64,000 bases of DNA, taken from assembly GCA_034414575.1 (NCBI GenBank), contig DAOULZ010000024.1, forward strand, positions 9,150 to 73,149, given 5' to 3'. Origin of the DNA: Dehalococcoidales bacterium (lineage in GTDB: Bacteria > Chloroflexota > Dehalococcoidia > Dehalococcoidales > UBA5760). How positions within the stretch are numbered: position 1 is the first letter of the stretch; each line of letters opens with the position of its first letter. Below are positions 1,322 through 55,471 of the stretch, in pieces. A program made the translations under genes and the position numbers. Under the pieces are notes generated by a model. It was given only the letters and a program-made list of their open reading frames with translations, did not search any database and was not told the DNA's origin.

Positions 1322-2839
1322 ATGGAAGTCGCACGAAATATATGTGCTAAGTATCTGGAAATGTTGAAGCCTAGAAAGATAATTAATAATCCTTCTGACG
1401 AAGAACTCAGGCAGTGGGCATTTGAAAAAGGGGGGGTAATAACTGAGTTTGGCAATCTGGCAGTAACCACAAATGTGCGTAATAGAATCGCCAAGTTTAC
1501 CGAGATAGTAATGGGCGACCTCTCAGCTGAGGATGACCATCTGTGTCGTCAGGTTTTGGAATACCTAAGGAATAAAGAAATGATACAGCTGGATCGGGTA
1601 ATGTGTCGGACCCCGGGTTTCAAGCGAAATTGTCGTGTATACGTTACTGCTAATTACCCGCGGATACCACTGATGTGGGGGAATACCCTTTTTCCTCATG
1701 AAGGTGGTAAGCCCGATTTTGTCACCATTACGGTTGCCGAGTGGCCGGAGAAGAAGACCCTTGTTTTTCCTGAGGCAGGTTTTACGCTGATTCTTGGTAG
1801 CGACTACAAGGGTGAGAACAAGAAGGCAATGCTGCGTCAGGTTATGTACCAGGCCAAGAAGCAAAGTAATCTTGGGCTGCATGCCGCCAGCAAGGTCATA
1901 AGAGTGTTTCGAGAAGGTAGGCTCAAGGACTACGGGTTCCTCCTCTTTGGTCTTAGTGGTACCGGGAAGACTGCGCTCTCTTGCCATTCTCACTGGTTGC
2001 GCCCGCCAGAGCGGGTGATAATCCGCCAGGACGACGTGGTTATCCTTAAGGCCGATGGCAGCGCTGTTGGCACCGAGGAGTCCTTCTACCTTAAAACAGA
2101 TGGACTTGAACCTACTTCTCAACCGCTTCTATATGCAGCGGCGATTAGCCCTCGTGCCATACTGGAAAACGTCTGTGTCGACCCAGAAACTGGCAGAGTT
2201 GATTTCTTCGACACCACACTTACCTCCAATGGTCGGGCAATGGTCAAGAGGCGCGATATTGCGTTCACTGATGATGACATAGACTTAGAAAAGGTTGACT
2301 TCGTGATATTCATCACCAGACGCTCTGATATCTTGCCTCCTGTAGCTCGGCTTTCACCGGAGTGGGCAGCGGCTGCCTTTATGCTAGGAGAGTCAGTGGA
2401 AACGTCGGCCGGTGACCCAACTCAGGCGGGTAAGGCATTAAGGGTTGTGGGTACAAATCCCTTCATCGTCGGCTCGGAGGAGGCAGAAGGCAATACCTTT
2501 CTTAATATCCTGAGAAATAACCCCGATATCCAGTGTTTTCTTTTGAACACGGGTAAGGTTGGTGGAGCCGATAGAGGGCAAAAGATAACGGTAAAGGACT
2601 CGGTAAAGATAATAGAAATGATAACCCGTGATAGCATCGTGTGGCAGAAGGATGATTGCTGGGGATATGAAGTGCCGGTTCAAATCCCGGGAATTGACTT
2701 GAGTCGATTCAAGCTGGACCGCTACTACGCCGAGGAACAAATACAGGAGATGTCCAAGGATCTGAAACAGGAAAGGCTGGAGTGGCTCTCTCAGTTTAAG
2801 CGGCTGGATAAGGATATCTTTAATACTATTATGCCTTAG
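1322..2839 (+). CDS. pckA: Phosphoenolpyruvate carboxykinase (ATP-dependent type)
   Basis: 505 aa. The kinase-1a P-loop FGLSGTGKTALS, the SNGRAMV block and the overall length fit ATP-PEPCK. Confidence 0.75.
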   Translation: MEVARNICAKYLEMLKPRKIINNPSDEELRQWAFEKGGVITEFGNLAVTTNVRNRIAKFTEIVMGDLSAEDDHLCRQVLEYLRNKEMIQLDRVMCRTPGFKRNCRVYVTANYPRIPLMWGNTLFPHEGGKPDFVTITVAEWPEKKTLVFPEAGFTLILGSDYKGENKKAMLRQVMYQAKKQSNLGLHAASKVIRVFREGRLKDYGFLLFGLSGTGKTALSCHSHWLRPPERVIIRQDDVVILKADGSAVGTEESFYLKTDGLEPTSQPLLYAAAISPRAILENVCVDPETGRVDFFDTTLTSNGRAMVKRRDIAFTDDDIDLEKVDFVIFITRRSDILPPVARLSPEWAAAAFMLGESVETSAGDPTQAGKALRVVGTNPFIVGSEEAEGNTFLNILRNNPDIQCFLLNTGKVGGADRGQKITVKDSVKIIEMITRDSIVWQKDDCWGYEVPVQIPGIDLSRFKLDRYYAEEQIQEMSKDLKQERLEWLSQFKRLDKDIFNTIMP

Positions 2840-3152
2840 AAATCACGATAGGGCTGGATATTTGCTGTGCCGTGCTTTCTATTATCGAAATAAATTAGAA
2901 TCGTAACTTACGCCTTAACCCTATATCCGTCGAATCCAACCCCCGGTTACTTGTTACCAACCAGGCAAGCCAGTTTTGCCGCCGGAGTCGGAGACGCTGA
3001 CGAGAGCTGGCCATATCTGGGAGATTTGGAAATCAGACCTGGCATTCTGAGAATGTAAATGTCCTGATCTCGAAATTGAACCTCTGGTACCTTGCCTTGA
3101 TTGGCATAGAACTTAGTTTGAGTATATCCCTATAATGGTTCGGGTAAGCCGG

Positions 3153-3181
3153 TTAATATTCGGTGGGAAAGCTGCTATAAT
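3153..3181 (+). promoter_or_regulatory. Possible sigma70-type promoter for the regulator gene
   Basis: TTAATA (3153-3158), 17-nt spacer, TATAAT (3176-3181), about 30 nt upstream of the ORF start. Confidence 0.3.
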
Positions 3182-3207
3182 AAACTAGGCTAGGATTACC
3201 CTGAGCC

Positions 3208-4005
3208 GTGTTTTATTGGGTTATGGTTGAGATACTGCGGAATAAAAGCTTGGCGACCAGATTTCAGGTGCTGGTGGCGGTAGCTGAGAGCGGGCCTAGT
3301 GTCCAGCAGCAGGAAATTGCTAAAAAGCTAGCTATCACCCCGCAGGCGATTTCGGATTACGTTGCCCAATTGGTAAAGGATGGGCTATTGACTGCAGACG
3401 GTCGTTCTCATTATAAGGTAACAGACGAGGGTGTGAACTGGATAGTTAGAATGCTGAGGGAGTTGAGAAGCTACACCAGTTCCGTGGAGAGGATTATCAC
3501 CAATATTTCGGTTTGTACCGCCATAGCCGAATGCGCATTGTCTAAAGGCGAGACTGTAGGTCTGAAGATGAAAGGCGGCCTGCTTTACGCCACTTCTAAG
3601 GTCACTAGTGGTGCCAGAGGAATAACTACATCTGATGCCCGCCCCGGTGAAGATGTAGGGGTAACCAGCATAGAGGGTATCGTAAAATTTAAACTCGGTG
3701 GGGTAACTATCCTTAGTGTGCCCGGTGTTGGCAAGGGAGGGTCCCGGAGCGTTGACCTTGCCAGACTGCGTCAGGAAGTGAAGGGCAAGTCTTTCGTTGG
3801 TGCTATAGGAATTGAGGCGCTGGTTACTTTAAGGCAGCTAAAAGTCGATTTCCATAGTTACGGTGTTCGGGAAGCCGCGATTGAAGCGGCTCACTGCGGT
3901 CTTCAGCCGGTAGTGGCCTGCACCGAAGGTGAAATCTCCGGCCTTATCAAAAGACTGGAGGAAGCGGATATCAGCTACCGGATAGCTGATATGGCAAGAA
4001 AATGA
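3208..4005 (+). CDS. Winged-helix DNA-binding protein with an uncharacterised ~190-aa C-terminal domain
   Basis: The N-terminal 70 aa (RFQVLVAVAESGPSVQQQEIAKKLAITPQAISDYVAQLVKDGLL) form a MarR/ArsR/Lrp-like wHTH. I do not recognise the remainder. The real start may be the ATG at 3223 (MVEILRNK...). Confidence 0.55.
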   Translation: MFYWVMVEILRNKSLATRFQVLVAVAESGPSVQQQEIAKKLAITPQAISDYVAQLVKDGLLTADGRSHYKVTDEGVNWIVRMLRELRSYTSSVERIITNISVCTAIAECALSKGETVGLKMKGGLLYATSKVTSGARGITTSDARPGEDVGVTSIEGIVKFKLGGVTILSVPGVGKGGSRSVDLARLRQEVKGKSFVGAIGIEALVTLRQLKVDFHSYGVREAAIEAAHCGLQPVVACTEGEISGLIKRLEEADISYRIADMARK

Positions 4006-4081
4006 GAGCTATTAGGCTATTTTAGCCCATCCTTATAGTTCGTAATTGCCTTTATTCTGACAACACAAGCTCTGTTCAGTA

Positions 4082-4111
4082 TTGACACAGATATTTTACC
4101 TCCGATATAAT
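4082..4111 (+). promoter_or_regulatory. Near-consensus sigma70-type promoter of the exported-protein/ECF operon
   Basis: TTGACA (4082-4087), 18-nt spacer, TATAAT (4106-4111). GGAGG at 4150-4154 precedes the GTG start at 4167. Confidence 0.6.
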
Positions 4112-4166
4112 CAAGTACAGTTGTTTATACGCTAGTAAAATTGATTAATGGAGGTACGTTTTAACT

Positions 4167-6164
4167 GTGAAGAGACGAAGGATTATAGCGTGTATTGTTA
4201 CCTTAGTAGTTGCCCTAACCGTGACTTCGGCATCGTTATTTATCGCTCCGGTTATGGCAGCGGACTCCTACCCCTTACAGACTATAGATCCAGAGGTAGC
4301 CAACGCTCTGGACTATCTCAGTGGCGAACAGGCCAGCGATGGCTCAATCGGTAGCTTTGTTGATTCAGCCTGGATAGCCATGGCGATTGCTGCGGCTGAT
4401 GATGACCCGCATGACTGGCAGGTGGGCGGAAACTCTATCGTTGATTACCTTGCCGCTAATGCCGGTAGTGCTGATTCTTCAACTGACTATTCGCGGATGA
4501 TACTGGCCATTGTCGCTTCCGGTGAGGATCCGACCAATTTCGGTAGCCGGGATTTCGTTTCTCTGCTGGAAGGAACCTATGATGACGCTAGTCAGCAGAT
4601 TGGTGAGGAGGCGTCTCTCAACGATGATATCTTTGGTGTCATGGCGCTAATCGCTGCGGGACGGAGTCAGAGTTATCAGATTATCACCGATGCGGTAGAT
4701 TTTATTATAGATAACCAGAATGGGGATGGTGGCTGGGCCTATTCGGTGGGGTTCGCCAGTGATGCTGACATGACTGGTGCGGCCGTGATGGCCTTAATTT
4801 CTGCCGGGGAGACAGTCGGCGCACCGATAGCTAGCGCCCTAGCCTATATTAAATCAACGCAGCAGGCTAACGGTGGTTTTTTGTCTTCTTGGGGTTCGAC
4901 TAATGCCGAGACTGATTCCTGGGCAATAAGTGCTATAGTGGCTTATGGGGAAGACCCCAACGGTACCGGCTGGACTTCCACCGGGGATAATACTCCGGTT
5001 GATGACCTCCTCACTTACCAGCAAGCGGGCGGTGAGTTCTATTACCAGGACGGTGTCCCCGGAGGCTGGCCGTCTCAGACAACGGCCAAAGCCATAATTG
5101 CCCTGCTGGGTGAGTTCTATCCGGTAGTAGCTATGGAGCCGACTGACGAAGAGGGAGTTACCGTTGACGTCAGGATCGAAGGGCAGAGTAGCACCATCTG
5201 GGATGGCAGCGTTACCGTTACGGAATCGACAGTTACGGCGGCCGATAGCGGCATCCCCTACTATTCTGAAGACCCGACGGCACTCGGAGCCCTGGACGAG
5301 GCATCTCAGGCTGGTGGTTTCGCCTATGAAGTGATTGACGAGTATGGGGAGGCGTTTGAGAGTTTGTATATAACTTCAATCGGGGGGGAGGCAGGCTCGA
5401 TGACCAGCGCCTGGCTCTATCGGGTGGACTATGTGAGTGTCATGGTGGGAGCCGGAGGTTTTACCCTTGGTGAGACAACGCCTCCTACTCCGCCGCACCG
5501 GGAAGTCCTGTTCTATTACATCACCGATAGTAACTGGGGGGCTCTGCCGCTCAAGGTCGAGGTTGACAATGACGAACCCGCGGTGGGCGAGCAATTTACC
5601 GTTACCGTAAGTGAGTTTAGCGATACTACCAATGACTGGTCGCCCTGTGAGGGGGCTACCGTCCACGCCGACACTAACTATACTACCGGGGCCCTGGGTA
5701 CGGTAGATATCACCGTGGACACGGATGCTACCCTTGAGATATATGCGGAGAAGGATAGCTTTATTCGCAGCAACCGGGTTGCCGTCACCGTGGGCACCGG
5801 TTCCGGAGTTAACGGAGAGGTAGGCTTGACCACCACCGTCATCCCGGCGATAGCCATTACGGTTGAGCCGGCTAGCTTGGATTTCGGTGAGTTGGGCCCC
5901 CGGGATACCAGTGCTCCTCAGGTAATAACCATAACCAATGTCGGGGCGTGGGATGTAGAGGTAACCTGTGAGGTAGCTGGGGTGGTGGGTGACCTCTATT
6001 TCGATGGGCTCAGGCTTAATGACGAGCTTTGGGACCTGTTTAGTGAAATAATTAACCGGGGTAATGATATGGATTGTTCCGCCACGCTCACCGTTCCGGA
6101 AAGCTATACCGGGGTAGGTGAGCAGAGCGGCACCGCCATCTTCTGGGCAGCGGAAGCCCCGTAG
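4167..6164 (+). CDS. Secreted multidomain protein: signal peptide, alpha/alpha-toroid (prenyltransferase/terpenoid-cyclase-like) repeats, DUF4430 (transcobalamin beta-domain-like) and two Ig-like domains
   Basis: Signal peptide MKRRRIIACIVTLVVALTVTSASLFIAPVMA/AD. Repeats of the QNGDGGWAY / QQANGGFLS / YQQAGGEFYY type span aa 41-320. Aa 330-452 (VTVDVRIEG...TALGALDEA...ITSIGG...SAWLYRVDYV...GAGGFTL...VLFYY) fit the DUF4430 pattern. Aa 556-665 are Ig-like (ITVEPASLDFGEL...VITITNVGAWDVEV). Confidence 0.65.
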   Translation: MKRRRIIACIVTLVVALTVTSASLFIAPVMAADSYPLQTIDPEVANALDYLSGEQASDGSIGSFVDSAWIAMAIAAADDDPHDWQVGGNSIVDYLAANAGSADSSTDYSRMILAIVASGEDPTNFGSRDFVSLLEGTYDDASQQIGEEASLNDDIFGVMALIAAGRSQSYQIITDAVDFIIDNQNGDGGWAYSVGFASDADMTGAAVMALISAGETVGAPIASALAYIKSTQQANGGFLSSWGSTNAETDSWAISAIVAYGEDPNGTGWTSTGDNTPVDDLLTYQQAGGEFYYQDGVPGGWPSQTTAKAIIALLGEFYPVVAMEPTDEEGVTVDVRIEGQSSTIWDGSVTVTESTVTAADSGIPYYSEDPTALGALDEASQAGGFAYEVIDEYGEAFESLYITSIGGEAGSMTSAWLYRVDYVSVMVGAGGFTLGETTPPTPPHREVLFYYITDSNWGALPLKVEVDNDEPAVGEQFTVTVSEFSDTTNDWSPCEGATVHADTNYTTGALGTVDITVDTDATLEIYAEKDSFIRSNRVAVTVGTGSGVNGEVGLTTTVIPAIAITVEPASLDFGELGPRDTSAPQVITITNVGAWDVEVTCEVAGVVGDLYFDGLRLNDELWDLFSEIINRGNDMDCSATLTVPESYTGVGEQSGTAIFWAAEAP

Positions 6165-6213
6165 TGGCAGAGATGCGGCTGTCGGCGGAGGATAACTGCC
6201 TTCCCCGTGACGT

Positions 6214-6777
6214 TTGGGAGAGGAAACAGGTTTGTTGACTAGGAAGTTAAGGGTATTACTACCGCTTACCCTGCTGCTGGGGCTGTTACTGTTCCCCAGG
6301 GGAGTATTGGCTTCGGGAATAGGAGTCACGCCCGGTAGTCTCAGTCTAGAGGCTTACCCGCTGATGAAGACTTCCGGACCGATAGAGGTCCTTAATACCT
6401 CTGAGGAGCGGGCGTTATACCAGGTGTATGCCGAGGGTGAAGTTGGGGAATGGTGCAGTATTTCCCCAGAGGAATTCGTCCTGGAGGCTGGTGGCAGCCA
6501 GATAGTGGAAGTAACGGTAACGCCGCCACTGGGGACGCGCGGCGATTATGAGGCGACGATATGTGCCGTCTCTCTGATGTCGGCATCGGAGCTGAAGGTC
6601 GGCTGCGGGGTTAAAATACCACTCCAGGTTTCGGTAGGCTTGGCACCTCCAGCCGGAAGGGTAGCCGAATTTATGGCGGGGTCGCCGCTGGTGTGGTTAA
6701 TTATTGCGGTAGTTCTGGCAATCGCTATTCCTATTACCCTCGCTGTTCGCAGGAGAAGGAGGCGCCGTGAGATTTAG
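6214..6777 (+). CDS. Exported Ig-like-fold protein with a C-terminal TM anchor and poly-Arg stop-transfer tail
   Basis: Signal-like N-terminus (LRVLLPLTLLLGLLLFPRGVLA), a beta-sandwich-like core (GIGVTPGSLSLEA...IEVLNTSEE...VEVTVTPP) and a C-terminal TM segment followed by RRRRRRRE. The 3' end overlaps the next gene by 11 nt. Confidence 0.5.
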   Translation: MGEETGLLTRKLRVLLPLTLLLGLLLFPRGVLASGIGVTPGSLSLEAYPLMKTSGPIEVLNTSEERALYQVYAEGEVGEWCSISPEEFVLEAGGSQIVEVTVTPPLGTRGDYEATICAVSLMSASELKVGCGVKIPLQVSVGLAPPAGRVAEFMAGSPLVWLIIAVVLAIAIPITLAVRRRRRRREI

Positions 6778-7810
6778 GCGGGTTATCAGCCTGTTTGCCA
6801 TAACCCTGCTGGTAGCCCTGCTCTGTAGCTGTGCTGGCGGCGTATCGGGAGGGTGGGAAGGTGATGTCGCCTCCCCCGACGATGGTGGCCCTGGCCCGGC
6901 TGAGAGCCCCCCCGCCCAGGAGGAAGCCGGCAGTCCGGCTGACTTGGGCCCCTCAACCAGAATCATAGTTACCCGTGGTTTCAGTGGGCCGGCCATTTTG
7001 ACGGAGACCGTGGCCATTGTCGAGGACACTACGGCGCTGGAAGCTCTGAAGATGGTGGCCAGTGTCGAGACTAAGTACGGGGGTGGCTTTGTCAGCTCGA
7101 TAGAGGGTATCAGCTCTGAGTATGAGGGGGAGGAAAAGGCGAAGGAGGACTGGTTTTTCTATATAAACGGCATTTCGCTCAGCACCGGCGCCGGTGGCTA
7201 TATCCTCCAGGATGGGGATAGCCAGCACTGGGACTATCACGACTGGAGCTTCCGCCAGTTTATTCCGGCCATAATCGGCGACTTTCCGGAGCCGTTTGTT
7301 CATGGTGTCAGGGGGGTGGTTTATCCTACCATCGTTGCCTATCAGAATGGCTGGCAGGAGGCGGCGGTACTGATAGCTGATAGACTGGAGGGGGTGGGTG
7401 TCCAGAATGTTAGCTGCCGGAATTTTGAGGAGCTTACGGCGGTGGATAAGGAGGCTAGCAATCTGATCTTGGTGGGCACCAGTGACTTTGCCCCGGTCGG
7501 GGAACTTAACGAGCCCTGGAGCCGCCTCGGCTTCTACTGTCACTTCGAAGAGGGGGGGCTTGCAGTCTTCGACGCGGCGGGTGAGCTGGTTAGTGAATAC
7601 AGTGAGGGTACCGGAATCATTCAGGCGACCCAGAGTATATGGAACCCGAAGGGGGTCGGGGCCGGCGAGAATGTGGTCTGGCTGGTCTCCGGATTAGATG
7701 AGCCCGGGGTGAGGGCTGCCGTGGACGTCCTGGTTAATCACCCCGATGATTATAAGTACGGCTGTGCCGTAGTAATTACTGAAGGAGAGACACTGAAGGT
7801 GCCCCGGTAG
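6767..7810 (+). CDS. Probable lipoprotein with an N-terminal DUF4430 (transcobalamin-like) domain and an unknown ~190-aa C-terminal domain
   Basis: Signal/lipobox-like ITLLVALLCSCAGG and a Pro/Gly/Glu-rich linker. Aa 64-160 (IIVTRGFSG...TTALEALK...YGGGFVSSIEGI...EDWFFYINGISLSTGAGGYILQDGDSQHWDY) are a textbook DUF4430 pattern. Confidence 0.6.
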   Translation: MRFRRVISLFAITLLVALLCSCAGGVSGGWEGDVASPDDGGPGPAESPPAQEEAGSPADLGPSTRIIVTRGFSGPAILTETVAIVEDTTALEALKMVASVETKYGGGFVSSIEGISSEYEGEEKAKEDWFFYINGISLSTGAGGYILQDGDSQHWDYHDWSFRQFIPAIIGDFPEPFVHGVRGVVYPTIVAYQNGWQEAAVLIADRLEGVGVQNVSCRNFEELTAVDKEASNLILVGTSDFAPVGELNEPWSRLGFYCHFEEGGLAVFDAAGELVSEYSEGTGIIQATQSIWNPKGVGAGENVVWLVSGLDEPGVRAAVDVLVNHPDDYKYGCAVVITEGETLKVPR

Positions 7811-8745
7811 TGAGGAGCTTTAGAAGCTTTAGATATCAAGATAAAGGTACCCCAGTCCACCGGCTTAATCCCTTCTCCAAGCTGGGGTGGATTACCAGCG
7901 TCCTCGTCCTTTCCCTGGTGCTTGATAGCCCCCTCTTTCTGCTGGCGGTGTTTCTGTCGACGCTGCCATTGGTGAAGGCGGCCCGGGTGTGGTCGGAGTG
8001 GCTGTCCGCTATGAGGCTGGCGCTGTATCTTTCGGCGGCGGTCATTCTCATCAATGCCCTGGTGAGTTCTCACGGCGCTCATGTCCTGTTTGAGGCTCCG
8101 TTTCACCTGCCACTGGTAGGGGTCCCGATGATAACGCTGGAAGCCATCATCTACGGGGTTGTCATGTCGCTCCGGCTGCTGTCAATAATCTCTGCCTTTG
8201 CCATACTTACCTTCACCGTTAACCCGGATGAGATGATGCTGGCGATGATAAAGATGAGGTTACCCTACAAATCGGTGCTGGTAGTTACGCTTTCCACTAG
8301 GTTTATTCCCACCCTGCTTGATGATGTCGAGCGCATTACCGATGTCCAGCGGTCGAGGGGTCTCGAGCTGGACAAGGGCAGATTAGCACGGAGAATAAAA
8401 AGCCGTGCCTCTATCGTGACCGTCCTGCTAGCTAATTCCCTTGATAGAGCAGTTCAGGTCGCCGAAGCTATGGAATCACGGGCCTTCGGTACCGGGCGAA
8501 ATCGCACTTTTTACCGCGACATAGGCTTCAGCCTGACCGATGTTACCACCCTGGTATTTTCTCTACTGCCGGCGGCGCTGGGCATCTTTATGGGGCTCAA
8601 GGGATACGGACAGTATCAGTATTACCCTACCGTGTCGTGGATAAACCCTACCGGCTGGGAGGCGTGGTTGCTGGTGTTAATGATAGTGCTGCTGGTGGCA
8701 CAGCTGCCGCTGGCATATCTGAAGCGGAGGGTTGACCTTGATTAG
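7810..8745 (+). CDS. ecfT: ECF transporter transmembrane (T) component, CbiQ/EcfT family
   Basis: Polytopic 311-aa protein with the EcfT C-terminal coupling-helix region (TDVQRSRGLEL...AEAMESRAFG). The GTG start overlaps the upstream stop codon (7808-7810). Confidence 0.85.
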   Translation: MRSFRSFRYQDKGTPVHRLNPFSKLGWITSVLVLSLVLDSPLFLLAVFLSTLPLVKAARVWSEWLSAMRLALYLSAAVILINALVSSHGAHVLFEAPFHLPLVGVPMITLEAIIYGVVMSLRLLSIISAFAILTFTVNPDEMMLAMIKMRLPYKSVLVVTLSTRFIPTLLDDVERITDVQRSRGLELDKGRLARRIKSRASIVTVLLANSLDRAVQVAEAMESRAFGTGRNRTFYRDIGFSLTDVTTLVFSLLPAALGIFMGLKGYGQYQYYPTVSWINPTGWEAWLLVLMIVLLVAQLPLAYLKRRVDLD

Positions 8746-10417
8746 AATCGAAAACCTGACCTTCTTTTATAGCAACATTAATCATCCTGCCCTCAAGGAC
8801 ATTAGTCTGGAAATCGGGGATGGGGAGTTTGTTCTGGTGACCGGGCCCTCCGGGGGTGGTAAGTCCAGCCTGTGCCGCTGCCTTAATGGTCTCATACCCC
8901 ACTTTTACGGCGGAAAGATTTACGGCCGGGTACTGGTTGCCGGGATGGATACGCTCGAACACTCTACCAAAGAACTGGCGACCAAGGTCGGCTTCGTGTT
9001 TCAGGACCCGGAGAGTCAGCTGGTGAGCATGGATGTGGAGCGGGAGGTTGCTTTTGGTCTGGAGAACCTCGGCTTTCCCCGGGACCTTATCGCCAAGCGG
9101 GTGGAGGAATCACTGGATACGCTCGGTATCGCCGGCCTCCGTTACCGGCAGCTCAGTGAGCTCTCCGGTGGGGAGAAGCAGAAGGTTGCCATTGCCTCGG
9201 TACTGGCGCTTCACCCCAGCGTTCTAATACTGGATGAGCCGACTTCAGAGCTGGACCCTAAGGGGGCGGAAGAGGTGCTGTCGGTAATAACCCGCCTCAA
9301 CGATGAACTCGGCCTTACGGTAATACTGATCGAGCACCGGCTCGATAGGGTGCTTCAGTATGCCGACCGATTAATAGTCCTGAGTGAGGGGATGGTGGCT
9401 ATTGACGGGGGGGTCAGAGATATCATAACTAATCGCTACCCCGAGCTTTCCAGAATTGGCGTTGGGGTTCCCCCCATGATCCGCCTGATTCAGGAGTTGC
9501 GTAATAAGGGCATCAAGATAGATAAAGTCCCTCTTACCGTTAAGGAAGGGCGGGCTATACTTAGGAAAACCTTAGATAAAACAACGCCTGTTCGAGATAC
9601 TGAGGGGGGTAACGGACGGGGGGTCGCTGATACTCTGGTCGAGGTCAAGAGGCTCTGGTATACCTACCCGAGTGGACTCCTTGCCCTGAGAAACGTGAAT
9701 CTGAGGATCGGCGAGGCGGAGTTCGTCACCATCATGGGGCGAAATGCCTCGGGCAAAACCACGCTGGCCAAGCATTTTAACCGTCTTCTGATACCGACCA
9801 AGGGCAGAATCAGGGTTGGCGGCCTTGATACCAGAGAGGCGACGATTGCGGAGCTGGCGAGAAAGGTCGGCTTCGTTTTTCAGAACCCTAACGATCATCT
9901 CTTCGCTGACACCGTCCATGATGAGATTGCCTTTACCCTGAAGAATTTGGGCTTTAGCCGCGAGGAGATAAGACTGCGCACCGCTGAGATGCTGGAGAGG
10001 TTTCAACTCACCGAATATCAGGATCAATATCCGCGTTCCTTGAGTGGTGGGGAAAAGCAGCGGGTGGCTCTGGCTTCGGTCCTGGCGACGAGACCCAAGG
10101 TTTTAATTCTTGATGAACCGACCCGGGGGATGGATTATCGGCTGAAAAGCGAGCTGATGCGGTTCCTGGACGAATACCGTTCCGAAGGCAACACGGTGGT
10201 TTTGGTAACCCACGATGTCGAGATAGTAGCTGAATATGCCGACCGGGTTATCCTCCTGAGTGAAGGCAAGGTTATCGTCGATGGGGAGAAACACCAGGTT
10301 CTATCTCAGGCTCTCCTTTTTTCACCGCAAATAAACCGCCTGGCACAATCATTCGAACGGTACGGCGTCTCTAACAGGATACTGACCGTTAGCGAGGCTC
10401 TAGGTATTCTGTCGTGA
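8732..10417 (+). CDS. ecfA: Fused tandem ECF/ABC ATPase (EcfA-EcfA')
   Basis: Two complete ABC domains. The first has GPSGGGKSS, LSGGEKQKVAIA and ILDEPTSELD. The second has GRNASGKTT, LSGGEKQRVALA and ILDEPTRGMD. Confidence 0.9.
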   Translation: MTLIRIENLTFFYSNINHPALKDISLEIGDGEFVLVTGPSGGGKSSLCRCLNGLIPHFYGGKIYGRVLVAGMDTLEHSTKELATKVGFVFQDPESQLVSMDVEREVAFGLENLGFPRDLIAKRVEESLDTLGIAGLRYRQLSELSGGEKQKVAIASVLALHPSVLILDEPTSELDPKGAEEVLSVITRLNDELGLTVILIEHRLDRVLQYADRLIVLSEGMVAIDGGVRDIITNRYPELSRIGVGVPPMIRLIQELRNKGIKIDKVPLTVKEGRAILRKTLDKTTPVRDTEGGNGRGVADTLVEVKRLWYTYPSGLLALRNVNLRIGEAEFVTIMGRNASGKTTLAKHFNRLLIPTKGRIRVGGLDTREATIAELARKVGFVFQNPNDHLFADTVHDEIAFTLKNLGFSREEIRLRTAEMLERFQLTEYQDQYPRSLSGGEKQRVALASVLATRPKVLILDEPTRGMDYRLKSELMRFLDEYRSEGNTVVLVTHDVEIVAEYADRVILLSEGKVIVDGEKHQVLSQALLFSPQINRLAQSFERYGVSNRILTVSEALGILS

Positions 10418-11157
10418 AACCGAGATATATCTTTCTGTTAGTGATTATCGGGCTGTGCGCCGCCGCTTTTGCAGCCCCGGTATTCAGTCCCTCGCCGCTT
10501 GATATCCTGCAGAACTGGGGGCTTATGTCGGTTATTCTGGTTGCCCTGACCATCGGTGCCTTCTTCTTTGAATTCGAGGGGAGCGCTATCGGCTCCAAGG
10601 AAATAGCCCTTATCGGCATACTGGGTACCGTTTCCGCCGTGGTCAGAATTCCCTTTGCCGCCGTCCCCAGTGTCCAGCCGTGCACCTACCTGATAATATG
10701 CGCGGGGTACGTCTTCGGCCCGCTGGCTGGATTTATGGTGGGGGCAATAACGGCCCTTATCTCTAACTTCTTTCTCGGACAGGGTCCCTGGACCATCTAT
10801 CAGATGTTTGCCTGGGGGATGGCGGGGGTCAGTGCCAGTTACCTGAAGCGTCTCAATCCGGGTCGGGGAAAGCTCTTGGCTTTTGGTATTCTCTGGGGTT
10901 ACCTCTTTGGCCTCATAGTCAATACTTGGTTCTGGGCCGCCTTCATCTACCCCCTGACACCGAGGACTTTCATTGTATCTCAGCTTAATAGCCTCTGGTT
11001 CGATACTGCCCATGCTGTGGCCAATGCCATCTTCCTGGGACTACTGGGTAAGAAGACCATCGATATTCTGGAGAGGTTTCATAAGAAATTCCAGTGGCAG
11101 GCACTCGGGCAAAGCCTGACGAATGCGGTTGTTGTGCCTAAAGCCGTCCTAAGGTGA
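10414..11157 (+). CDS. ECF transporter substrate-capture (S) component, substrate unknown
   Basis: 247 aa with about 6 TM segments and a typical S-component layout. The start overlaps the ecfA stop in GTGA (10414-10417). I cannot assign the subfamily by eye. Confidence 0.65.
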   Translation: MKPRYIFLLVIIGLCAAAFAAPVFSPSPLDILQNWGLMSVILVALTIGAFFFEFEGSAIGSKEIALIGILGTVSAVVRIPFAAVPSVQPCTYLIICAGYVFGPLAGFMVGAITALISNFFLGQGPWTIYQMFAWGMAGVSASYLKRLNPGRGKLLAFGILWGYLFGLIVNTWFWAAFIYPLTPRTFIVSQLNSLWFDTAHAVANAIFLGLLGKKTIDILERFHKKFQWQALGQSLTNAVVVPKAVLR

Positions 11158-11277: not shown

Positions 11278-11964
11278 GTGACTGATAAATCTATGAGCTA
11301 TATTGTATCCTGGAGTGGTGGTAAGGAAAGTTGCCTAACTTTATATGAGGCGATGGGCAAAGGGTATAAAATTTCTCACCTGGTGAACTTCATTTCCGAG
11401 GAATCTCATAGGGTAAGTTTTCATGGCACAGAGGCTCGGCTGATTCAGCTTCAAAGCCAAGCCATAGGGATTCCTCTTTTGCAGAAAAGGGCCGGCTGGG
11501 GTAAGTATGAGCAAGATTTTAAGGATGCAGTGCGTAGTCTAATTCCTGGTGGTGTGGAGGGCATGGTTTTTGGTGATATTTATCTTCAAGAGCACAAAGA
11601 TTGGGTTGAGAAAGTTTGTGCTGAACTAGGTATTGAGGCGATTGAGCCACTCTGGGGCAGGAACACGGAAGAGGTATTACTTAGCTTCATCAATAGCGGG
11701 TTCGAAGCGGTTATCGTCAGTGCCCAATCTGAACTGGTCGACGAAGATTGGATTGGTCAGCGAGTAGATAAGGCATTCATGGAGTACCTTGGGAGCAGGA
11801 ACATTGATCTGTGTGGGGAGAATGGCGAGTACCATACCCTTGTGGTTAACGGGCCTATTTTCCGGCGACAAATAAAACTGATTGAGAGTAGGACTATTGC
11901 TAGGGACCGCTATTGGTTCTTGAATACTGTTAGATATAAGCTTGGTCGGGGTGAGAGGACTTGA
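11278..11964 (+). CDS. PP-loop ATP pyrophosphatase of the Dph6/MJ0570-like family
   Basis: SWSGGKES PP-loop (SGGKDS type) at the N-terminus, about 225 aa. The start may be the ATG at 11293. The last 22 nt overlap tRNA-Pro on the opposite strand. Confidence 0.6.
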   Translation: MTDKSMSYIVSWSGGKESCLTLYEAMGKGYKISHLVNFISEESHRVSFHGTEARLIQLQSQAIGIPLLQKRAGWGKYEQDFKDAVRSLIPGGVEGMVFGDIYLQEHKDWVEKVCAELGIEAIEPLWGRNTEEVLLSFINSGFEAVIVSAQSELVDEDWIGQRVDKAFMEYLGSRNIDLCGENGEYHTLVVNGPIFRRQIKLIESRTIARDRYWFLNTVRYKLGRGERT

Positions 11965-19589: not shown

Positions 19590-20993
19590 TTAATCTTTCT
19601 TCGCGTACTTGGGGAGGTACTTCTTAATCAGTTCTTCTCTAATCAGCTTCAGGTCTTCCTCAGGCAAGGCGGAGAATAACTTCCAGCCTATGCCTAAAGT
19701 CTCCTCCACTCTCCTCTTTTCAAATGCGTCCTGAGAAATAAATTCTCTTTCAAAGCGGTCAGCATTGGTGAGGTATATTTTATCCCTCTCCCCCAATGCC
19801 TCAGCCCCGATGATGGTCGATATCTCCCGGAGGTTACACCCTTCAGCATAAGCGGCATAGAGCTGCATAAAGACATTGTTGTGGTCCTCTCTGGTCTTGC
19901 CCGGCCCGATACCTTCTTTCATCATCCGGGAAAGCGACAGGAACACATCTATAGGAGGGTATATCCCTTTTCTCTCCAGTTCCCGGGATAGGACAATCTG
20001 CCCCTCCGTTATGTAGCCGGTCAGGTCGGGAATGGGGTGGGTGATGTCATCATCGGGCATGGTCAGGATAGGCATAATGGTTACCGAGCCCTCTTTATTC
20101 AGGATTCGGCCGGCCCGCTCGTACAGCGTGGCCAGGTCGGTATACATGTAACCGGGGTAACCTCTTCGCGACGGTATTTCCTCGCGCATCGCTGAGAGCT
20201 CGCGGAGCGCCTCACAGTAATTAGTCATATCGGCCAGTATCACCAGGACGTGCATACCCTGCTTCCAAGCCAGATACTCACCGGCCGTCAGGGCGAGCTT
20301 GGGGGTTGATATTCGTTCGATAACCGGGTCGGAGGCGGTGTTAATGAAGGCCACGGTCCTTTCCCTGGCCCCGGTCTGTTCCAGCCCCTTCATGAAAAAG
20401 GCAGCGTCATCATAACTCACCCCGATGGCCGCAAATACCATGGCGAACTGCTCTTCAGTGCCCTTAACTGCTGCCTGCCTGATTATTTGCACTGCAATTC
20501 GGTTGTGAGGCAAGCCGGAACCGCTGAATATAGGTAATTTCTGCCCCCTAACCAGCGCGTTCAGGCCATCTATGGCTGAGATACCAGTCTCAATAAACTC
20601 AGCCGGGGGCATACGGCTGGCCGGGTTAATGGGCTCCCCGTTAACATCGAGGTAGTCTTCCGGGATTACCGCTGGCCCTCCGTCTATCGGCTCACCCAGG
20701 CCGTTAAAAATCCGGCCTAGAATGTCCATGGAGACCGCCAGTTTCAGCGTTTCACCCTTACAGCGTACCCGGCTCCCGACGAGGTCAACCTCACTAACAC
20801 CACCGAAGACCTGAATTACAGTTATCTCCTTACTGATGTCTATTGCCTGACCCCGCTTCACCTCACCGTTAGACAGAATGACATCGACTATCTCACCAAA
20901 TTTGATGTCAGGTATGCTCTCGGCGATTAACAGAGCGCCCTTGGTACGGCTGATCGCCTGCGTTTCTTTTACATAAAGTGAAGATGAAATCAT
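19590..20993 (-). CDS. atpB: A/V-type ATPase subunit B (non-catalytic)
   Basis: 467 aa. It shows the family blocks [15 protein letters not shown] and [33 protein letters not shown]. Confidence 0.95.
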
Positions 20994-22741
20994 GATGTGC
21001 CTCCTTTGTGGGCTACTAGGCTGGCTTCCATATCAGCCCACAGTTCCTTTATCTTCGGCTCGATATCATCGTTGGGCATATCCTTCATTCGGGATATTCG
21101 CGGCACTATAGGAGATGGGCGGATTTCAGCCACCGTTACTCCCGAATCCAGCATCTTCTGGGTCAGCTCGTAGAACCTGATTATCGTTCTCAGCATGAGT
21201 TGGGCCTTGAGGGGCACGCAATAGGTGTCAATCTCGTGGTAGGCACTCTGCGTGAGAAAATCCTCACGTATCATCCTAGTTACCAGAAGTACCAGCTTAT
21301 CGTCTTCAGGCAGGGCTTCCGGACCCACCAGCCTGACAATCTCCTCCAGCTCAGCCTCTTGTTGCAGTAGCCTTAGAGCCGTGGCCCGGGTAGTATCCCA
21401 TTCTGAACTAACCTCTGACCACCAATCTTTGACATCGTCGACGTAAAGGCTGTAGCTGGTGAGCCAGTTTATAGCCGGAAAGTGCCGCCGGTTGGCCAGT
21501 GCCGTATCCAGGGCATAGAAAGCATCTACAATGCGCAAGGTATTCTGGGTTACCGGCTCGCTAAAGTCGGCTCCTGGGGGGCTAACGGCTCCGGCCACAG
21601 TCACTGAGCCCTCTCTTTCCGGGCTACCCAGACACGCTACCCGTCCCGCCCGTTCGTAGAATGAGGAGAGCCGCGAACCAAGGTAAGCCGGGAAGCCCTC
21701 CTCGCCGGGTATCTCCTCGAGCCGGCCGCCAATCTCTCTCATCGCTTCTGCCCATCTTGAGGTTGAGTCAGCCACCAAGAGGACATCATATCCCATATCC
21801 CGGAAGTATTCCGCCAGGGTGATACCGACGAAGACACTGGCCTCACGGGCCACCACCGGCATATTGGAGGTATTGGCAATAAATACCTCCTTCTCCTGTA
21901 ACAGTCGGCCCGTGGTCGGTTCCTTGAGCTGTCTAAAGCTGTAGAGCACGTCGGCCATCTCGTTACCTCGCTCGCCGCAGCCGACGTAAATATTCAGCTG
22001 GGTCTGGGCCCATCGGGCCAGCTGCTGCAAGGCTACCGTTTTCCCGGTACCGAAACCACCCGGTATGGCTGCCTTACCGCCGAGAGCCAGGGGGAACATA
22101 TAGTCCAGAATTCTCATACCGGTAACCAGCAGCTTTGAGGGAGCAAACCGCTGCTTATAGGGTCGGGGCTTTCTTACCGGCCACTTTTGCAGCATGGTTA
22201 TGTCCTTTACTGTGCCATTGTCCTGTAACCGGGCTACCGGCTCCTCAATGGTAAACTCCCCCTTACGAATCTCTTTAATGGTGCCCTTCATGCCGACTGG
22301 CACCATGATTCGGTGTTCCAGAAGATGGGTCTCCGGAACCGTCCCCAGTATATCCCCTTCACTGACTTTATCGCCGGCCTTAACCTTCGGTGAAAACGGC
22401 CACTTTTTATCACGGGAAAGGGAGGACACCTTGGCCCCGCGCTCTATAAATGAACTCTGCTCCATGAGAACGGTCAGGGATTTCTGCAGCCCGTCGTAGA
22501 TGGAGCTGACAATCCCGGGACCTAACTCGGCGGTTAAAATCGCTCCCGTGCCCCTGATCGTCTCGCCGACCTTAAGCTCTAGGGTATCCTCATGTACCTG
22601 GATTATCGCCTTGTCTTCCTCGAGACCAATTACCTCACCGACCAGCCCTTGGCTGCCTATCTCCACGATCTCATAGACCTGAGCCCCCTTCATACCCTCG
22701 CCGATAACTAGGGGGCCGGAAATCCTCCATATTTTGCCCAT
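20990..22741 (-). CDS. atpA: A/V-type ATPase catalytic subunit A
   Basis: 583 aa with Walker [18 protein letters not shown] and the A-subunit-specific non-homologous insert. Confidence 0.95.
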
Positions 22742-22766
22742 TTCTTACCACCTCCATAAAACACGC

Positions 22767-23114
22767 TTAGATTTCTATATCGAAGCCGATGAATTTTCTG
22801 ATGTAAGCCTTATAATATTGGGTGACATCTTGGTAGCGCGTACCGTATTTTGACGGTACCTCAATAACTACCGGGGGCGAAGTTTTCTTCTCTTTGGATT
22901 GAGCGACCAGGTCTTCAATGTGTCTGGCATAGTCTTCCAGTATCACGATGATGCCGATACCGGGCTCATCTATAAATTCAGTGAGAGCCTGTCTAACCTC
23001 TTCTCTATCATCACCGGTAATCACCCGATAGCGACGTACACCAGCCAGCCTCAGCTCGCTTACCAGGTCCTCGTCGCCGATAACCGCTATCTCCAGTTGT
23101 CTGATATTTACCAT
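22767..23114 (-). CDS. atpF: A/V-type ATPase subunit F
   Basis: 115 aa. The start IAVIGDEDLVSELRLAGV is typical of subunit F, and it lies between C and A. Confidence 0.8.
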   Translation of the reverse strand: MVNIRQLEIAVIGDEDLVSELRLAGVRRYRVITGDDREEVRQALTEFIDEPGIGIIVILEDYARHIEDLVAQSKEKKTSPPVVIEVPSKYGTRYQDVTQYYKAYIRKFIGFDIEI

Positions 23115-24166
23115 GCTGAGACCAGATACTCCTTTATTTCTTCTACGGGGATAGCGTCGAAGGCTGCCTTCATAATCAGCCTTAGGTTTCTTATCTCAAG
23201 TTCCTTAACGGTTAAGTACCAGGCTATCACCAATGGTGTCAGCACTCTCGGGGATAGCATCTCTCTGAGCAATCGGAACTTGTGTTTATCAATGATTTCG
23301 TTGATGACGCTAATACTTTTGGTTCTGTTATAGCCGGCGACGACTTCCTCTACTATCTCCCGGTACTGCGTCACCCCCAGCGCGCCAGGTAGGTCAGCCA
23401 GTTTATGTGACAGTAAATCCCGCGCTACTGCCTCTGAAATCATATAGCCACCGCTAATAATAGATTCACCTGCCTCCGAAACTATGCCCTCAACTATGGC
23501 TCTATTTATCAGGGCTAGATTGGCCATATCGATGATTATGCTGAAGGCTTTAGCTAGCAAAGGGCCGTCCGGCACATTCCGGGATACCTTCAGTAGGTTA
23601 TCATAATACGCCTCATCCAATTTGGCTTCAGTCAGGAATCTGGACTTCTTATCTTCCGCCGAATATTCTTTGAGAATGTCGGCGTAATTTGCCAATCTGC
23701 ATTCCCGCAACACCATGATAACATCGCCAACACTTTTGGCACCGGAAAGTACATCGAGCAGTCCCTGAATATGAATAGCGCCCACCGGCACCAGGCTAGA
23801 TTTCTTGCCCGTACTGATGCCCTGCAGCGCAGCCTTGATATTGATGACATCGTATTTCAACATGTAGGCTTTGAGCACCTGGCGCACCTCATCCGGCACC
23901 AGTTTTAGCCGCTCCAGCCGCTCGAGACACTCATTAAAGTAGTGCCACAAATACCTGTCCGAGTCGTCAAAGGTCTTAACCAGTGCCTCTTCAAGGTATC
24001 TTCCGGCCTCGGTGTCTCTAATCGTCTCCAGTACCTCACGGACGCTGGAGGCTATGTCCTGGACATTGGATATCCGTGACATTCGGTCGATATGCTCCGA
24101 GGTCAACACTTTAGACTCGGAGCCCTTCAGGTAGGCCGATACAAAGGCATATTTTGCGCTGGGCAA
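23108..24166 (-). CDS. atpC: A/V-type ATPase subunit C (d)
   Basis: 352-aa helical protein between E and F. Confidence 0.8.
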   Translation of the reverse strand: MPSAKYAFVSAYLKGSESKVLTSEHIDRMSRISNVQDIASSVREVLETIRDTEAGRYLEEALVKTFDDSDRYLWHYFNECLERLERLKLVPDEVRQVLKAYMLKYDVINIKAALQGISTGKKSSLVPVGAIHIQGLLDVLSGAKSVGDVIMVLRECRLANYADILKEYSAEDKKSRFLTEAKLDEAYYDNLLKVSRNVPDGPLLAKAFSIIIDMANLALINRAIVEGIVSEAGESIISGGYMISEAVARDLLSHKLADLPGALGVTQYREIVEEVVAGYNRTKSISVINEIIDKHKFRLLREMLSPRVLTPLVIAWYLTVKELEIRNLRLIMKAAFDAIPVEEIKEYLVSAW

Positions 24167-24183
24167 AGCTAACTCCTTTAAAT

Positions 24184-24765
24184 CTAGAAAAGCTCCTTAC
24201 CGACTTCAGGCAGTAACTTGGGGAGTAACATCTCCAGTCTGGTCTCATAGGTATTATCGATTCTGACCTTACCATCGATATCCTCGACGATAACACCTCC
24301 CATACTGCCGTGCTCCTTGACTTCCTCAATCTTACCGGCTAATTCCTTGTCCTTCTCCACGAGCTTCTGCACCGTGGTCAAATCCTTGGCTGAGACGTAG
24401 AGCCGTCCCTTACTGACTCCGAGGGTATCAATAGCTTCCTTAATCAGGCCGGTGAGGGAGCTTTTATCGCTGGGGCTTGAGGCCAGCTTCTTTTTTGCCC
24501 GACTGATTATCTCACTAATTACCTCATCTTTGGCTCGGGCCAGCTCCTGGCGTGCCTTGACTAGGGCTTGAGCCTCAATACGGGTAGCCTCATCCTTGGC
24601 TTGCTGGAGCATCCTGGCCTTCTCCTCCTCCAGTCTGGCTCCCTGCTGCTTTTTCGCTTCCTCTATTTCTTGCTTTGCCCTATCCTCGGCATCCTTTATG
24701 ATGTCATTCGCTTCGGCCTTTACCTTATCCAGGATAGCTTCACCTATTTTCTCCATTCCTGCCAT
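24184..24765 (-). CDS. atpE: A/V-type ATPase subunit E (peripheral stalk)
   Basis: 193 aa with an N-terminal charged coiled coil and a C-terminal globular part (GGVIVEDIDGKVRIDNTYETRLE). Confidence 0.85.
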   Translation of the reverse strand: MAGMEKIGEAILDKVKAEANDIIKDAEDRAKQEIEEAKKQQGARLEEEKARMLQQAKDEATRIEAQALVKARQELARAKDEVISEIISRAKKKLASSPSDKSSLTGLIKEAIDTLGVSKGRLYVSAKDLTTVQKLVEKDKELAGKIEEVKEHGSMGGVIVEDIDGKVRIDNTYETRLEMLLPKLLPEVGKELF

Positions 24766-24774
24766 ACGACACCC

Positions 24775-25245: not shown

Positions 25246-25264
25246 TTTTGGCCTCTCCTTTCTA

Positions 25265-55467: not shown

Positions 55468-55471
55468 GTTT

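Follow-up and report, generated by a model that had tools for sequence, protein, structure and literature searches.

An ECF importer with a CbrT-type S component and transcobalamin-like exported proteins in a Dehalococcoidales bacterium: a probable corrinoid uptake operon and its candidate regulator

What is imported by an energy-coupling factor (ECF) transporter whose genes are preceded by three genes for exported proteins, and do these proteins feed it? The question is raised by a six-gene operon in a stretch of 64,000 nucleotides from a Dehalococcoidales bacterium (assembly GCA_034414575.1, contig DAOULZ010000024.1, positions 9,150 to 73,149 of the forward strand), referred to here as the window. 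ECF transporters are usually said to need no binding protein. The answer preferred here, with a probability of about 0.78, is a corrinoid importer (for vitamin B12, cobinamide or related cobamides) with an S component of the CbrT family, co-expressed with surface corrinoid-binding proteins homologous to transcobalamin. The corrinoid is proposed as substrate because of four lines of evidence, treated as independent: the homology of the S component to CbrT, the transcobalamin folds of the exported proteins, the cobalamin riboswitches on orthologous operons and the B12 operons linked to the family of the neighbouring regulator. An earlier note, made from the letters alone, had proposed a scavenging and hand-off apparatus for corrinoids at the cell surface; its corrinoid and scavenging part is supported by these four lines and by synteny, and the hand-off step is kept with lower confidence than the uptake itself. 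The idea had been anticipated, as the same kind of operon was predicted by Burroughs et al. in 2007 (PMC1796856). The promoter and the six genes are as follows.

4082-4111, + strand: sigma-70-type promoter, TTGACA-18-TATAAT
4167-6164, + strand: P1, 665 amino acids, predicted exported transcobalamin-like protein
6214-6777, + strand: P2, 187 amino acids, small, predicted membrane-anchored immunoglobulin (Ig)-like protein
6767-7810, + strand: P3, 347 amino acids, predicted lipoprotein
7810-8745, + strand: EcfT, 311 amino acids
8732-10417, + strand: fused EcfA-EcfA', 561 amino acids
10414-11157, + strand: S component (EcfS), 247 amino acids

The layout of the earlier note was reproduced in full, with six co-directional genes at 4167-11157, unchanged coordinates of the open reading frames and a promoter matching the consensus at 12 of 12 positions. 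Four of the five junctions overlap, as it had read them, by 11 nucleotides between P2 and P3, 1 between P3 and EcfT (TAGTG), 14 between EcfT and EcfA and 4 between EcfA and EcfS (GTGA), and a gap of 49 nucleotides separates P1 and P2. The start codons were taken as the earliest in each frame, the real starts possibly lying a few codons further downstream; P2 has alternative starts at codons 7 and 8, and Shine-Dalgarno sequences precede P1 (GGAGG), P3 (AGGAGAAGGAGG) and EcfA (GCGGAGGG). Regarding the promoter, such sites are not above chance in the region, with 9 observed against 7.4 ± 3.0 expected; TTGACA and TATAAT with a spacing of 17-18 nucleotides are kept at the equivalent position in orthologous loci.

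The last three genes had been described as a complete ECF transporter, and the profile searches agree. EcfT matches Pfam CbiQ (PF02361, 2.6e-29) and NCBIfam ECF_T_CbiQ (TIGR02454, 3.6e-19), the fused ATPase possesses two ABC_tran domains (1e-59) and scores over the cut-offs of both ECF_ATPase_1 (TIGR04520, 493 bits) and ECF_ATPase_2 (TIGR04521, 472 bits), and the S component matches ECF_trnsprt (PF12822, 6.4e-14). The operon is thus predicted to encode a dedicated (group I) ECF importer, having a T component, A and A' domains and its own operon-encoded S component. When a profile of 23 family members of the S component was compared with the Protein Data Bank (PDB), it retrieved CbrT (6FNP_A, E=8.1e-16, 61.7 bits, query positions 63-230 against CbrT 11-180), followed by RibU (E=0.87) and 4hzu_S, a 'Predicted membrane protein' (E=1.2). 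The alignment covers the whole core of six transmembrane helices and places the protein with CbrT, not in a family of another substrate, so that it is assigned, from sequence, to the CbrT family. In addition, the S component carries about 60 additional N-terminal residues (window 10414-10600) with two hydrophobic segments, and this extension is kept across the family, including the Firmicutes loci in which P3 is the sole accessory protein. As for CbrT itself, the transporter ECF-CbrT (6FNP) of Lactobacillus delbrueckii, characterised by Santos et al. in 2018, has nanomolar affinity for its substrates cobalamin and cobinamide, and hemin is no competitor (PMC5997447).

The names CbiQ for the T component and cbiO for the ATPase, given by Pfam and NCBIfam, could be taken as pointing to a cobalt or nickel transporter of the CbiMNQO/NikMNQO type, a reading that retains hardly any probability. 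CbiQ and CbiO are generic names for the ECF T and A components; no match to CbiM/NikM (PF01891) and no CbiN was found in the operon, where the S component matches ECF_trnsprt and CbrT instead, and genuine CbiM-CbiQ-CbiO operons are found separately in related organisms (L082, with a CbiM match of 1.5e-49, and L101; loci from the genome scans described below are given by such numbers).

If the S component belongs with CbrT, the exported proteins can be asked whether they resemble known carriers of the same ligand. P1 has the following predicted parts, all on the + strand.

Amino acids 4-32: signal or anchor helix, from a transmembrane scan
Amino acids ~36-322, nucleotides 4272-5132: alpha/alpha toroid, with helices at 42-313 in the AlphaFold2 model
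Amino acids ~328-455, nucleotides 5148-5531: SLBB/DUF4430 beta-domain, at 331-452 in the model
Amino acids 456-545: Ig-like domain A, a sandwich at 460-542 in the model
Amino acids 556-665: Ig-like domain B, a sandwich at 564-663 in the model

The AlphaFold2 model of P1, with 39 family members as input, has a mean predicted local distance difference test score (pLDDT) of 88.5. When this model was searched against the PDB with Foldseek, the best 11 matches were all transcobalamin, haptocorrin or intrinsic factor (top match 7qbe_A, E=2.6e-11), with alignments of 446-469 columns that span both domains at an identity of 13-16%; squalene-hopene and other terpene cyclases rank after them, at E of about 1e-8. 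The model suggests that P1 has the full two-domain design of the animal B12 carriers, resembling the transcobalamin family in fold without being a member by sequence. The earlier note had seen a secreted 665-residue protein with a toroid followed by a DUF4430 domain, and both are found (by the model, and by Pfam and hhalign); its description was incomplete, as it left out the two C-terminal Ig-like domains and the whole transcobalamin architecture.

Meanwhile, P3 would combine a second copy of the beta-domain with a lipid anchor and a domain of its own, as seen in the list below (all + strand).

Hydrophobic amino acids 1-30: signal with lipobox ...ALL-C-S-C22, from the sequence pattern
Amino acids 23-58: disordered tether of ~35 residues, from the AlphaFold2 model
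Amino acids ~60-165, nucleotides 6944-7261: SLBB/DUF4430 domain, from Pfam and Foldseek
Amino acids 166-347 (~180 amino acids): C-terminal alpha/beta domain, named P3C, from the AlphaFold2 model

Cys22 is invariant in 37 sequences, and P3 is accordingly classed, from this pattern, as a predicted bacterial lipoprotein. Its DUF4430 match (PF14478) reaches 2.7e-14 and 53.8 bits against a cut-off of 23.8 (amino acids 88-158), so that the third exported protein is, as had been claimed, a likely lipoprotein with a DUF4430 domain, to which P3C is now added. The AlphaFold2 model (pLDDT 82.7, predicted TM-score 0.78) was compared by Foldseek, and the SLBB domain superposes on beta-domains of transcobalamin and haptocorrin, namely on the transcobalamin structure 5no0 with a TM-score of 0.70 and a root-mean-square deviation (rmsd) of 2.7 Å, on 4kki with an rmsd of 2.0 Å over 106 columns and on the DUF4430 crystal structure 3u7z with a TM-score of 0.70; P3C resembles part of BcsB distantly. 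A sequence search of the PDB with P3, family profile included, gave no match. The SLBB domains of P1 and P3 align to each other in hhalign with a probability of 93.5% (E=2.3e-7), indicating that they are paralogues, and the beta-domain fold is found in both proteins by Pfam, hhalign and Foldseek.

For a better understanding of how far this association is kept, the P3 family was scanned with one genome per species, giving 69 loci, nearly all from Dehalococcoidia and three from Firmicutes; the denominators of the fractions below are the loci with enough contig for each test. EcfT adjoins P3 on its downstream side in 67 of 69 loci, the fused ATPase is present after EcfT in 59 of 60 and the S component follows EcfA in 54 of 55, the synteny of exported and ECF genes being kept in essentially all of the 69 genomes. 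Outside the cytoplasm, P3 is the invariant partner of the ECF module, and its family comprises 341 clusters (50% identity, E<=1e-30) in a set of 1.84 billion representatives. Upstream, within 6 kb, 48 of 52 loci have a toroid or P1-like gene. According to domain hidden Markov models, 22 loci have the toroid fused to the first SLBB domain and 20 encode the two in adjacent separate genes, in either order (42 of 52 together); six loci have the toroid only, and four lack both. Two of these four are from Firmicutes; the remaining Firmicutes locus, L062, was left out of this count as it has too little upstream sequence. This fusion and fission is the pattern expected for two halves of one ligand clamp. 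The number of toroid proteins per locus varies from 0 to 3, and in the Firmicutes locus L061 the unit consists of a riboswitch, a P3-like gene, ecfT, ecfAA' and ecfS with no toroid protein, an arrangement indicating P3 and the ECF transporter as the minimal system.

Two further observations concern the scanned loci. In L094, an exported protein with a beta-propeller (PQQ_2) and CARDB is encoded at 5277-7298, between the regulator and the toroid, P3 and ECF genes. In L036, L054 and L066, the gene order typical of Dehalococcoidia is found in bins named Bathyarchaeia, 'archaeon' and Wildermuthbacteria, labels that are probably due to mis-binning, otherwise to lateral transfer.

P1 can also be read in another manner, as an extracellular enzyme of the terpene-cyclase/prenyltransferase superfamily whose substrate would be a lipid or part of the envelope, with its transporter neighbourhood being incidental. 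By sequence the best matches are indeed repeats of the squalene-hopene-cyclase type (Pfam SQHop_cyclase_C, 2e-7; PDB 8zg1, 1.7e-11), the sequence search of the PDB with P1 returns cyclase repeats only, so that the likeness to transcobalamin came from structure prediction, and the NCBI title on the homologues is 'prenyltransferase/squalene oxidase repeat-containing protein', P1 being identical to an NCBI protein and its named relatives coming from metagenome-assembled genomes of Dehalococcoidales, Dehalococcoidia and Chloroflexota. However, these matches are limited to the generic repeat at amino acids ~150-260, TIGR01507, with a cut-off of 431 bits, covers a single repeat and scores 28.9, and where cyclases have their DxDD motif the P1 of the window has D199-A-D201-M, the family consensus being DVDD. 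Moreover, at the level of the predicted fold the transcobalamin family outranks the cyclases and the beta-domain is aligned too, the toroid goes with SLBB, in one gene or in neighbouring genes, in most loci, as counted above, and P1 has an export signal. An enzyme of this kind is accordingly considered very improbable.

P2 had been described as a membrane-anchored Ig-like protein, and it has an N-terminal signal, a single Ig-like domain, a transmembrane helix at amino acids 149-181 and then RRRRRR, the Pfam matches being weak Ig-like ones only (E 0.008-0.08). It is present in 18 of 18 loci with the Ig domain B of P1 compared with 2 of 34 without it (Fisher p=4e-12, uncorrected for phylogeny, the counts not being independent). 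This co-occurrence hints at P2 as a candidate membrane anchor that holds P1. The possibility that P2 is a homologue of Ig domain B was also tried, and it is unsupported, with an hhalign probability below 1%.

If corrinoids are the substrate, how are the operon and its relatives regulated? The cobalamin riboswitch (RF00174) was searched with Rfam in 58 of the 69 orthologous loci, and it lies directly upstream on the same strand in 6 of 58, with 32.7-106 bits against a gathering score of 31.5. All three Firmicutes loci have one (L060, 99.5; L061, 106; L062, 91.1 bits), and the others belong to Chloroflexota (L053, 54.5; L050, 52.1; L039, 32.7 bits). A regular expression for the B12 box flagged the three Chloroflexota riboswitches, missed all three of Firmicutes and was left unused for counts.

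In the window, a regulator gene and a palindrome precede the operon.

3208-4005, + strand: Reg, a regulator with an N-terminal DtxR/MarR-type winged helix-turn-helix (HTH) and a C-terminal DUF7839 domain
4106-4129, no strand assigned: palindrome TATAATCAAGTACAGTTGTTTATA, consensus TATAATCAA-N6-TTGWTTATA, overlapping the -10 box

Reg matches DUF7839 (6.6e-24) and MarR_2 (2e-8) in Pfam, and its family profile finds in the PDB only HTH matches, of ScaR/SloR-like regulators (6o5c, E=5e-7, amino acids 14-81). Of the 56 orthologous loci with enough upstream sequence, 21 have it as the gene just before the operon, in the same orientation. A metagenome scan for the Reg family gave 80 loci (L070-L149), 48 of them with enough downstream sequence, in which the first downstream gene is as follows.

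BtuF-like binding protein: 12 of 48
CbiX-CbiC fusion: 10 of 48
P1-like gene: 10 of 48
CobO-type corrinoid adenosyltransferase: 3 of 48
Unidentified or unrelated gene: 12 of 48
None: 1 of 48

The scan thus yielded copies of the P1-type operon in only 10 of 48 loci, and the remainder exposed a wider B12 regulon. Further along, the Pfam-verified genes CbiM, CbiQ, CbiO, CbiD, CbiB, BtuC and CobQ-like are found, and a B12-related gene lies within 4.5 kb downstream in 36 of 48 loci. The putative regulon may then include the ECF-CbrT/transcobalamin-like operon, btuF-btuC, cbiX-cbiC-cbiD, cbiMQO, cobO and cbiB.

The palindrome of the window is one mismatch off a perfect inverted repeat. It precedes the operon in 22 of 56 loci, and downstream of Reg relatives it is found in 12 of 12 BtuF-type and 6 of 10 CbiX-CbiC contexts, with only 41 matches in 1.0 Mb of loci. 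These positions suggest the palindrome as a candidate operator for Reg, and Reg itself may repress the operon and respond to corrinoids. Riboswitch and regulator were never found together: both Reg and the palindrome are missing from the six riboswitch loci, and the riboswitch was not found in the window, in 12 Reg-bearing orthologous loci or in 18 Reg-linked B12 loci. The simplest reading is that a protein repressor controls here a gene set that is governed elsewhere by the cobalamin riboswitch, with the operon belonging to that set. A corrinoid may be the best-fitting ligand of Reg given this regulon, and it may also be some other ligand; a metal is less likely, as the family keeps few potential metal ligands and a separate NiCo riboswitch is present in two loci. 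An assignment of the C-terminal domain to an intracellular SLBB domain, of the winged HTH-SLBB type of Burroughs et al., was tried and rejected at the sensitivity of hhalign, which gives 0.1% against the P1 and P3 families. A limited literature search found no description of a regulator of this type.

Those two NiCo riboswitches (RF02683) are found in L091 at 2207-2293 (46.3 bits) and in L097 at 218-292 (38.1 bits), approximately 1 kb upstream of Reg genes that precede cbiX-cbiC, so that RNA cobalt sensing and the protein regulator stand side by side in these loci.

Several observations weigh against the corrinoid reading or against its details. In the window no RF00174 match reached the gathering threshold, nor did positions 2800-4400 give one at E<=10, and 21 of 56 orthologous loci are without regulator, palindrome and riboswitch. 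Concerning P1, its global superposition on transcobalamin has an rmsd of ~24 Å, the inter-domain arrangement predicted by the model being different from the closed, ligand-bound form, and Pfam Cobalamin_bind (PF01122) has no match at E<=0.1 in P1 or P3, which for P1 counts on this side. Its DUF4430 match (PF14478, amino acids 387-434) has 23.0 bits, 0.8 under the Pfam cut-off of 23.8; the assignment was accepted because of the hhalign alignment with the P3 domain and the structure model, and many P1 homologues have a precomputed PF14478 match. With respect to the hand-off, ECF-CbrT needs no accessory protein for its activity, either in E. coli or in proteoliposomes (PMC5997447), and since it works alone, the exported proteins are likelier enhancers of affinity or scavenging than obligatory receptors. 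The last observation is experimental and comes from Lactobacillus sakei, where deletion of lsa1836-1840 cut heme accumulation 5- to 8-fold at 5-40 µM hemin and complementation restored it (bioRxiv 10.1101/864751).

This leads to the sole serious alternative substrate, heme or another non-corrin tetrapyrrole, for which the transcobalamin-like proteins would be extracellular scavengers; the L. sakei operon likewise has alpha-toroid-like and beta-like proteins beside an ECF module (bioRxiv 10.1101/864751). Against it stand the cobalamin riboswitches before six orthologous operons and the Reg family, which is linked to cbi, cob and btu genes, no heme genes being seen in its neighbourhoods. In addition, hemin fails to compete with B12 for CbrT, the homologue of the S component (PMC5997447), the effect in L. 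sakei appears only at micromolar hemin, and its authors state that their own S component lacks the cobalamin-binding residues (bioRxiv 10.1101/864751). Heme import is thus regarded as improbable for the operon of the window, and corrinoid uptake is retained.

It is still to be asked whether the exported proteins feed the transporter. The ECF module could import corrinoids on its own, with the exported proteins serving surface retention or storage, withholding from competitors, or discrimination and remodelling of cobamides. The independence of ECF-CbrT from any partner fits this possibility, and the number and layout of toroid and SLBB domains (0-3 toroids, fused or split, and the beta-propeller of L094) are more like an adaptable capture layer than a fixed docking partner. 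However, P3 adjoins EcfT nearly without exception, with a gene overlap of one base in the window, it is in Firmicutes the only accessory protein, inside a riboswitch-controlled unit, and the N-terminal extension of the S component, absent from stand-alone CbrT, could be a docking site. A separate role of the exported proteins is for these reasons held to be rather unlikely, being the least unlikely of the alternatives set out here.

The preferred reading, corrinoid capture and import, can be put together as the following sequence of events. The export signals, namely the N-terminal hydrophobic segments of P1 and P2 and the invariant lipobox cysteine of P3, would place the three proteins outside the cytoplasm. 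Under corrinoid scarcity, Reg would leave the palindromic operator over the -10 box, and the six genes would be transcribed as one translationally coupled message. The toroid and the SLBB beta-domain of P1 may then close on a corrinoid, as in transcobalamin, a step suggested by the predicted fold, and P1 would be kept at the surface via its Ig-like domains, probably by P2, as their co-occurrence suggests. The tethered P3 would most likely take the corrinoid, alone or with a toroid, and hand it on to the S component, possibly by way of the N-terminal extension. By homology to the characterised transporter, the CbrT-like S component would bind the corrinoid and topple in the membrane, driven by EcfT and the fused ATPase, with ATP hydrolysis by EcfAA' powering the import. 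The accessory proteins likely raise capture at very low external corrinoid, more than being mechanistically essential.

A bolder extension of this scheme is put forward tentatively, and it is somewhat more likely to fail than to hold: Reg may be an undescribed protein sensor of corrinoids that replaces the riboswitch in many Dehalococcoidia and represses via the palindrome, and P3, docked at the N-terminal extension of the S component, may be the first protein to deliver substrate from outside the cytoplasm to an ECF transporter of the vitamin type.

Regarding the demand for the cofactor, the earlier note had pointed to a methylmalonyl-CoA mutase in the window, which was found and would be among the enzymes served by the import. 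The genes of interest around the operon are listed here.

40691-42310, - strand: methylmalonyl-CoA mutase catalytic subunit (PF01642, E=1.3e-225), a corrinoid consumer
39805-40275: epimerase-like gene, adjoining the mutase
38146-39621: carboxyltransferase, adjoining the mutase region
11278-11964, + strand: Dph6-like ATP pyrophosphatase (PF01902, 7e-58), 120 nucleotides downstream of the S component

Homologues of the Dph6-like gene adjoin the ECF operon in L016 (9304-9945), L031 (15406-16059) and L052 (1029-1730), and others are located inside BtuF-Dph-CobO-BtuC operons after Reg relatives (L143, 3183-3824; L145; L121). This recurrence suggests that the protein may take part in corrinoid salvage in a manner not yet recognised, such as an ATP-dependent amidation.

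Other features were observed beside these subjects. Molybdenum-cofactor riboswitches (RF01055) are present in L030 (15528-15648, 73 bits) and L037 (15439-15564, 72 bits), about 1.2 kb downstream of the S component and before another ABC ATPase gene, so that cofactor-uptake operons appear to cluster in these genomes. In the window, a T-box leader at 55175-55451 (100.3 bits) lies directly upstream of anthranilate synthase component I (55466-56932) and is presumably tryptophan-responsive, a transfer-messenger RNA is located at 33087-33439 on the - strand, and a V/A-type ATPase operon extends over 19590-27289 (- strand), comprising the A and B subunits, C/AC39 and the 116-kDa subunit family. The T-box leader and the transfer-messenger RNA mark the DNA as bacterial.

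Dehalococcoidia include organohalide-respiring bacteria of bioremediation, and Dehalococcoides depend on corrinoids from other organisms. Corrinoid acquisition decides the growth of such corrinoid-dependent bacteria, and, judging by this locus, a large share of the class, so far uncultured, may use ECF-CbrT with transcobalamin-type surface proteins, instead of or alongside BtuFCD. The soluble domains make the B12-binding prediction of 2007 testable, with consequences for the proposal that the animal B12 carriers arose in bacteria, and the substrate conflict with the heme report from L. sakei is directly testable too. The system also raises the question of whether an ECF transporter can be fed by a binding protein, and if Reg does sense corrinoids, it would do as a protein what one of the commonest riboswitches does as RNA. 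A literature search found no biochemical B12 binding for any bacterial member of the protein set, and searches on DUF4430, DUF7839, Dehalococcoidia with ECF and protein B12 sensors returned nothing specific to the system beyond the papers cited here.

Compared with known systems, the closest transporter is ECF-CbrT, with a homologous S component, a T component and two ATPase domains, its substrates being cobalamin and cobinamide. The differences are that CbrT belongs to group II and uses a shared general module, whereas the module is here dedicated and operon-encoded, with a fused A-A', and that the S component has about 60 more N-terminal residues and is accompanied by three co-transcribed exported proteins. 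In L. delbrueckii, cbrS adjoins cbrT, and it is mentioned but not described (PMC5997447). The L. sakei system is similar in having an ECF module, an S component, the beta-like Lsa1839 and the alpha-toroid-like Lsa1840 as separate genes, which is the split layout of 20 loci here; it differs in being assigned to heme, from a deletion mutant at micromolar hemin, and it was compared by description, not by sequence.

The mammalian carriers transcobalamin, intrinsic factor and haptocorrin share the alpha6/alpha6 toroid and the beta-grasp (SLBB) domain that sandwich one B12. Meanwhile, the identity is 13-16%, the two Ig-like domains of P1 are additional, P3 lacks a toroid and joins the beta-domain to an unrelated C-terminal domain and a lipid anchor, and the delivery, which in mammals is to an endocytic receptor, would here be to an ECF transporter. 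BtuF-BtuCD likewise has a high-affinity extracytoplasmic binder feeding an importer, and BtuF/BtuC-type operons are found under the Reg family in related Dehalococcoidia; its fold is unrelated (a class III periplasmic binding protein) and its transporter is a type II ABC importer. The surface capture of B12 by BtuG and BtuH of Bacteroides follows the same logic with unrelated folds (beta-propeller) and TonB-dependent transport. CbiN and NikK/NikL are extra extracytoplasmic or membrane components of some group I ECF systems, differing in fold, in their metal-ion substrate and in an S component of the CbiM/NikM type.

The nearest relatives of the whole operon are those described by Burroughs, Balaji, Iyer and Aravind in 2007: extracellular transcobalamin-like SLBB proteins, some fused to toroids, with Ig domains and a paralogue in the same operon, encoded beside CbiO/CbiQ-like neighbours, usually in hosts without B12 synthesis, for which scavenging of B12 or its precursors was predicted and among whose SLBB architectures a beta-propeller fusion was listed (PMC1796856). 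The agreement is essentially complete, covering export signals, paralogous SLBB domains and CbiQ/CbiO-like neighbours, and the kind of operon has been known since that prediction, the earlier note being a sound rediscovery and not a new class. However, that study predates the recognition of ECF and CbrT, contains no evidence from riboswitches or regulators and called the clade a Gram-positive innovation (PMC1796856), whereas the spread across Dehalococcoidia, the CbrT-type S component and the placement in the B12 regulon are shown here. What is added is the tie between transcobalamin-like proteins and a CbrT-type S component, the riboswitch evidence, the breadth in Dehalococcoidia, the invariant P3, and Reg with its candidate operator. 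Among these, Reg is the likely new element and the lead most worth following.

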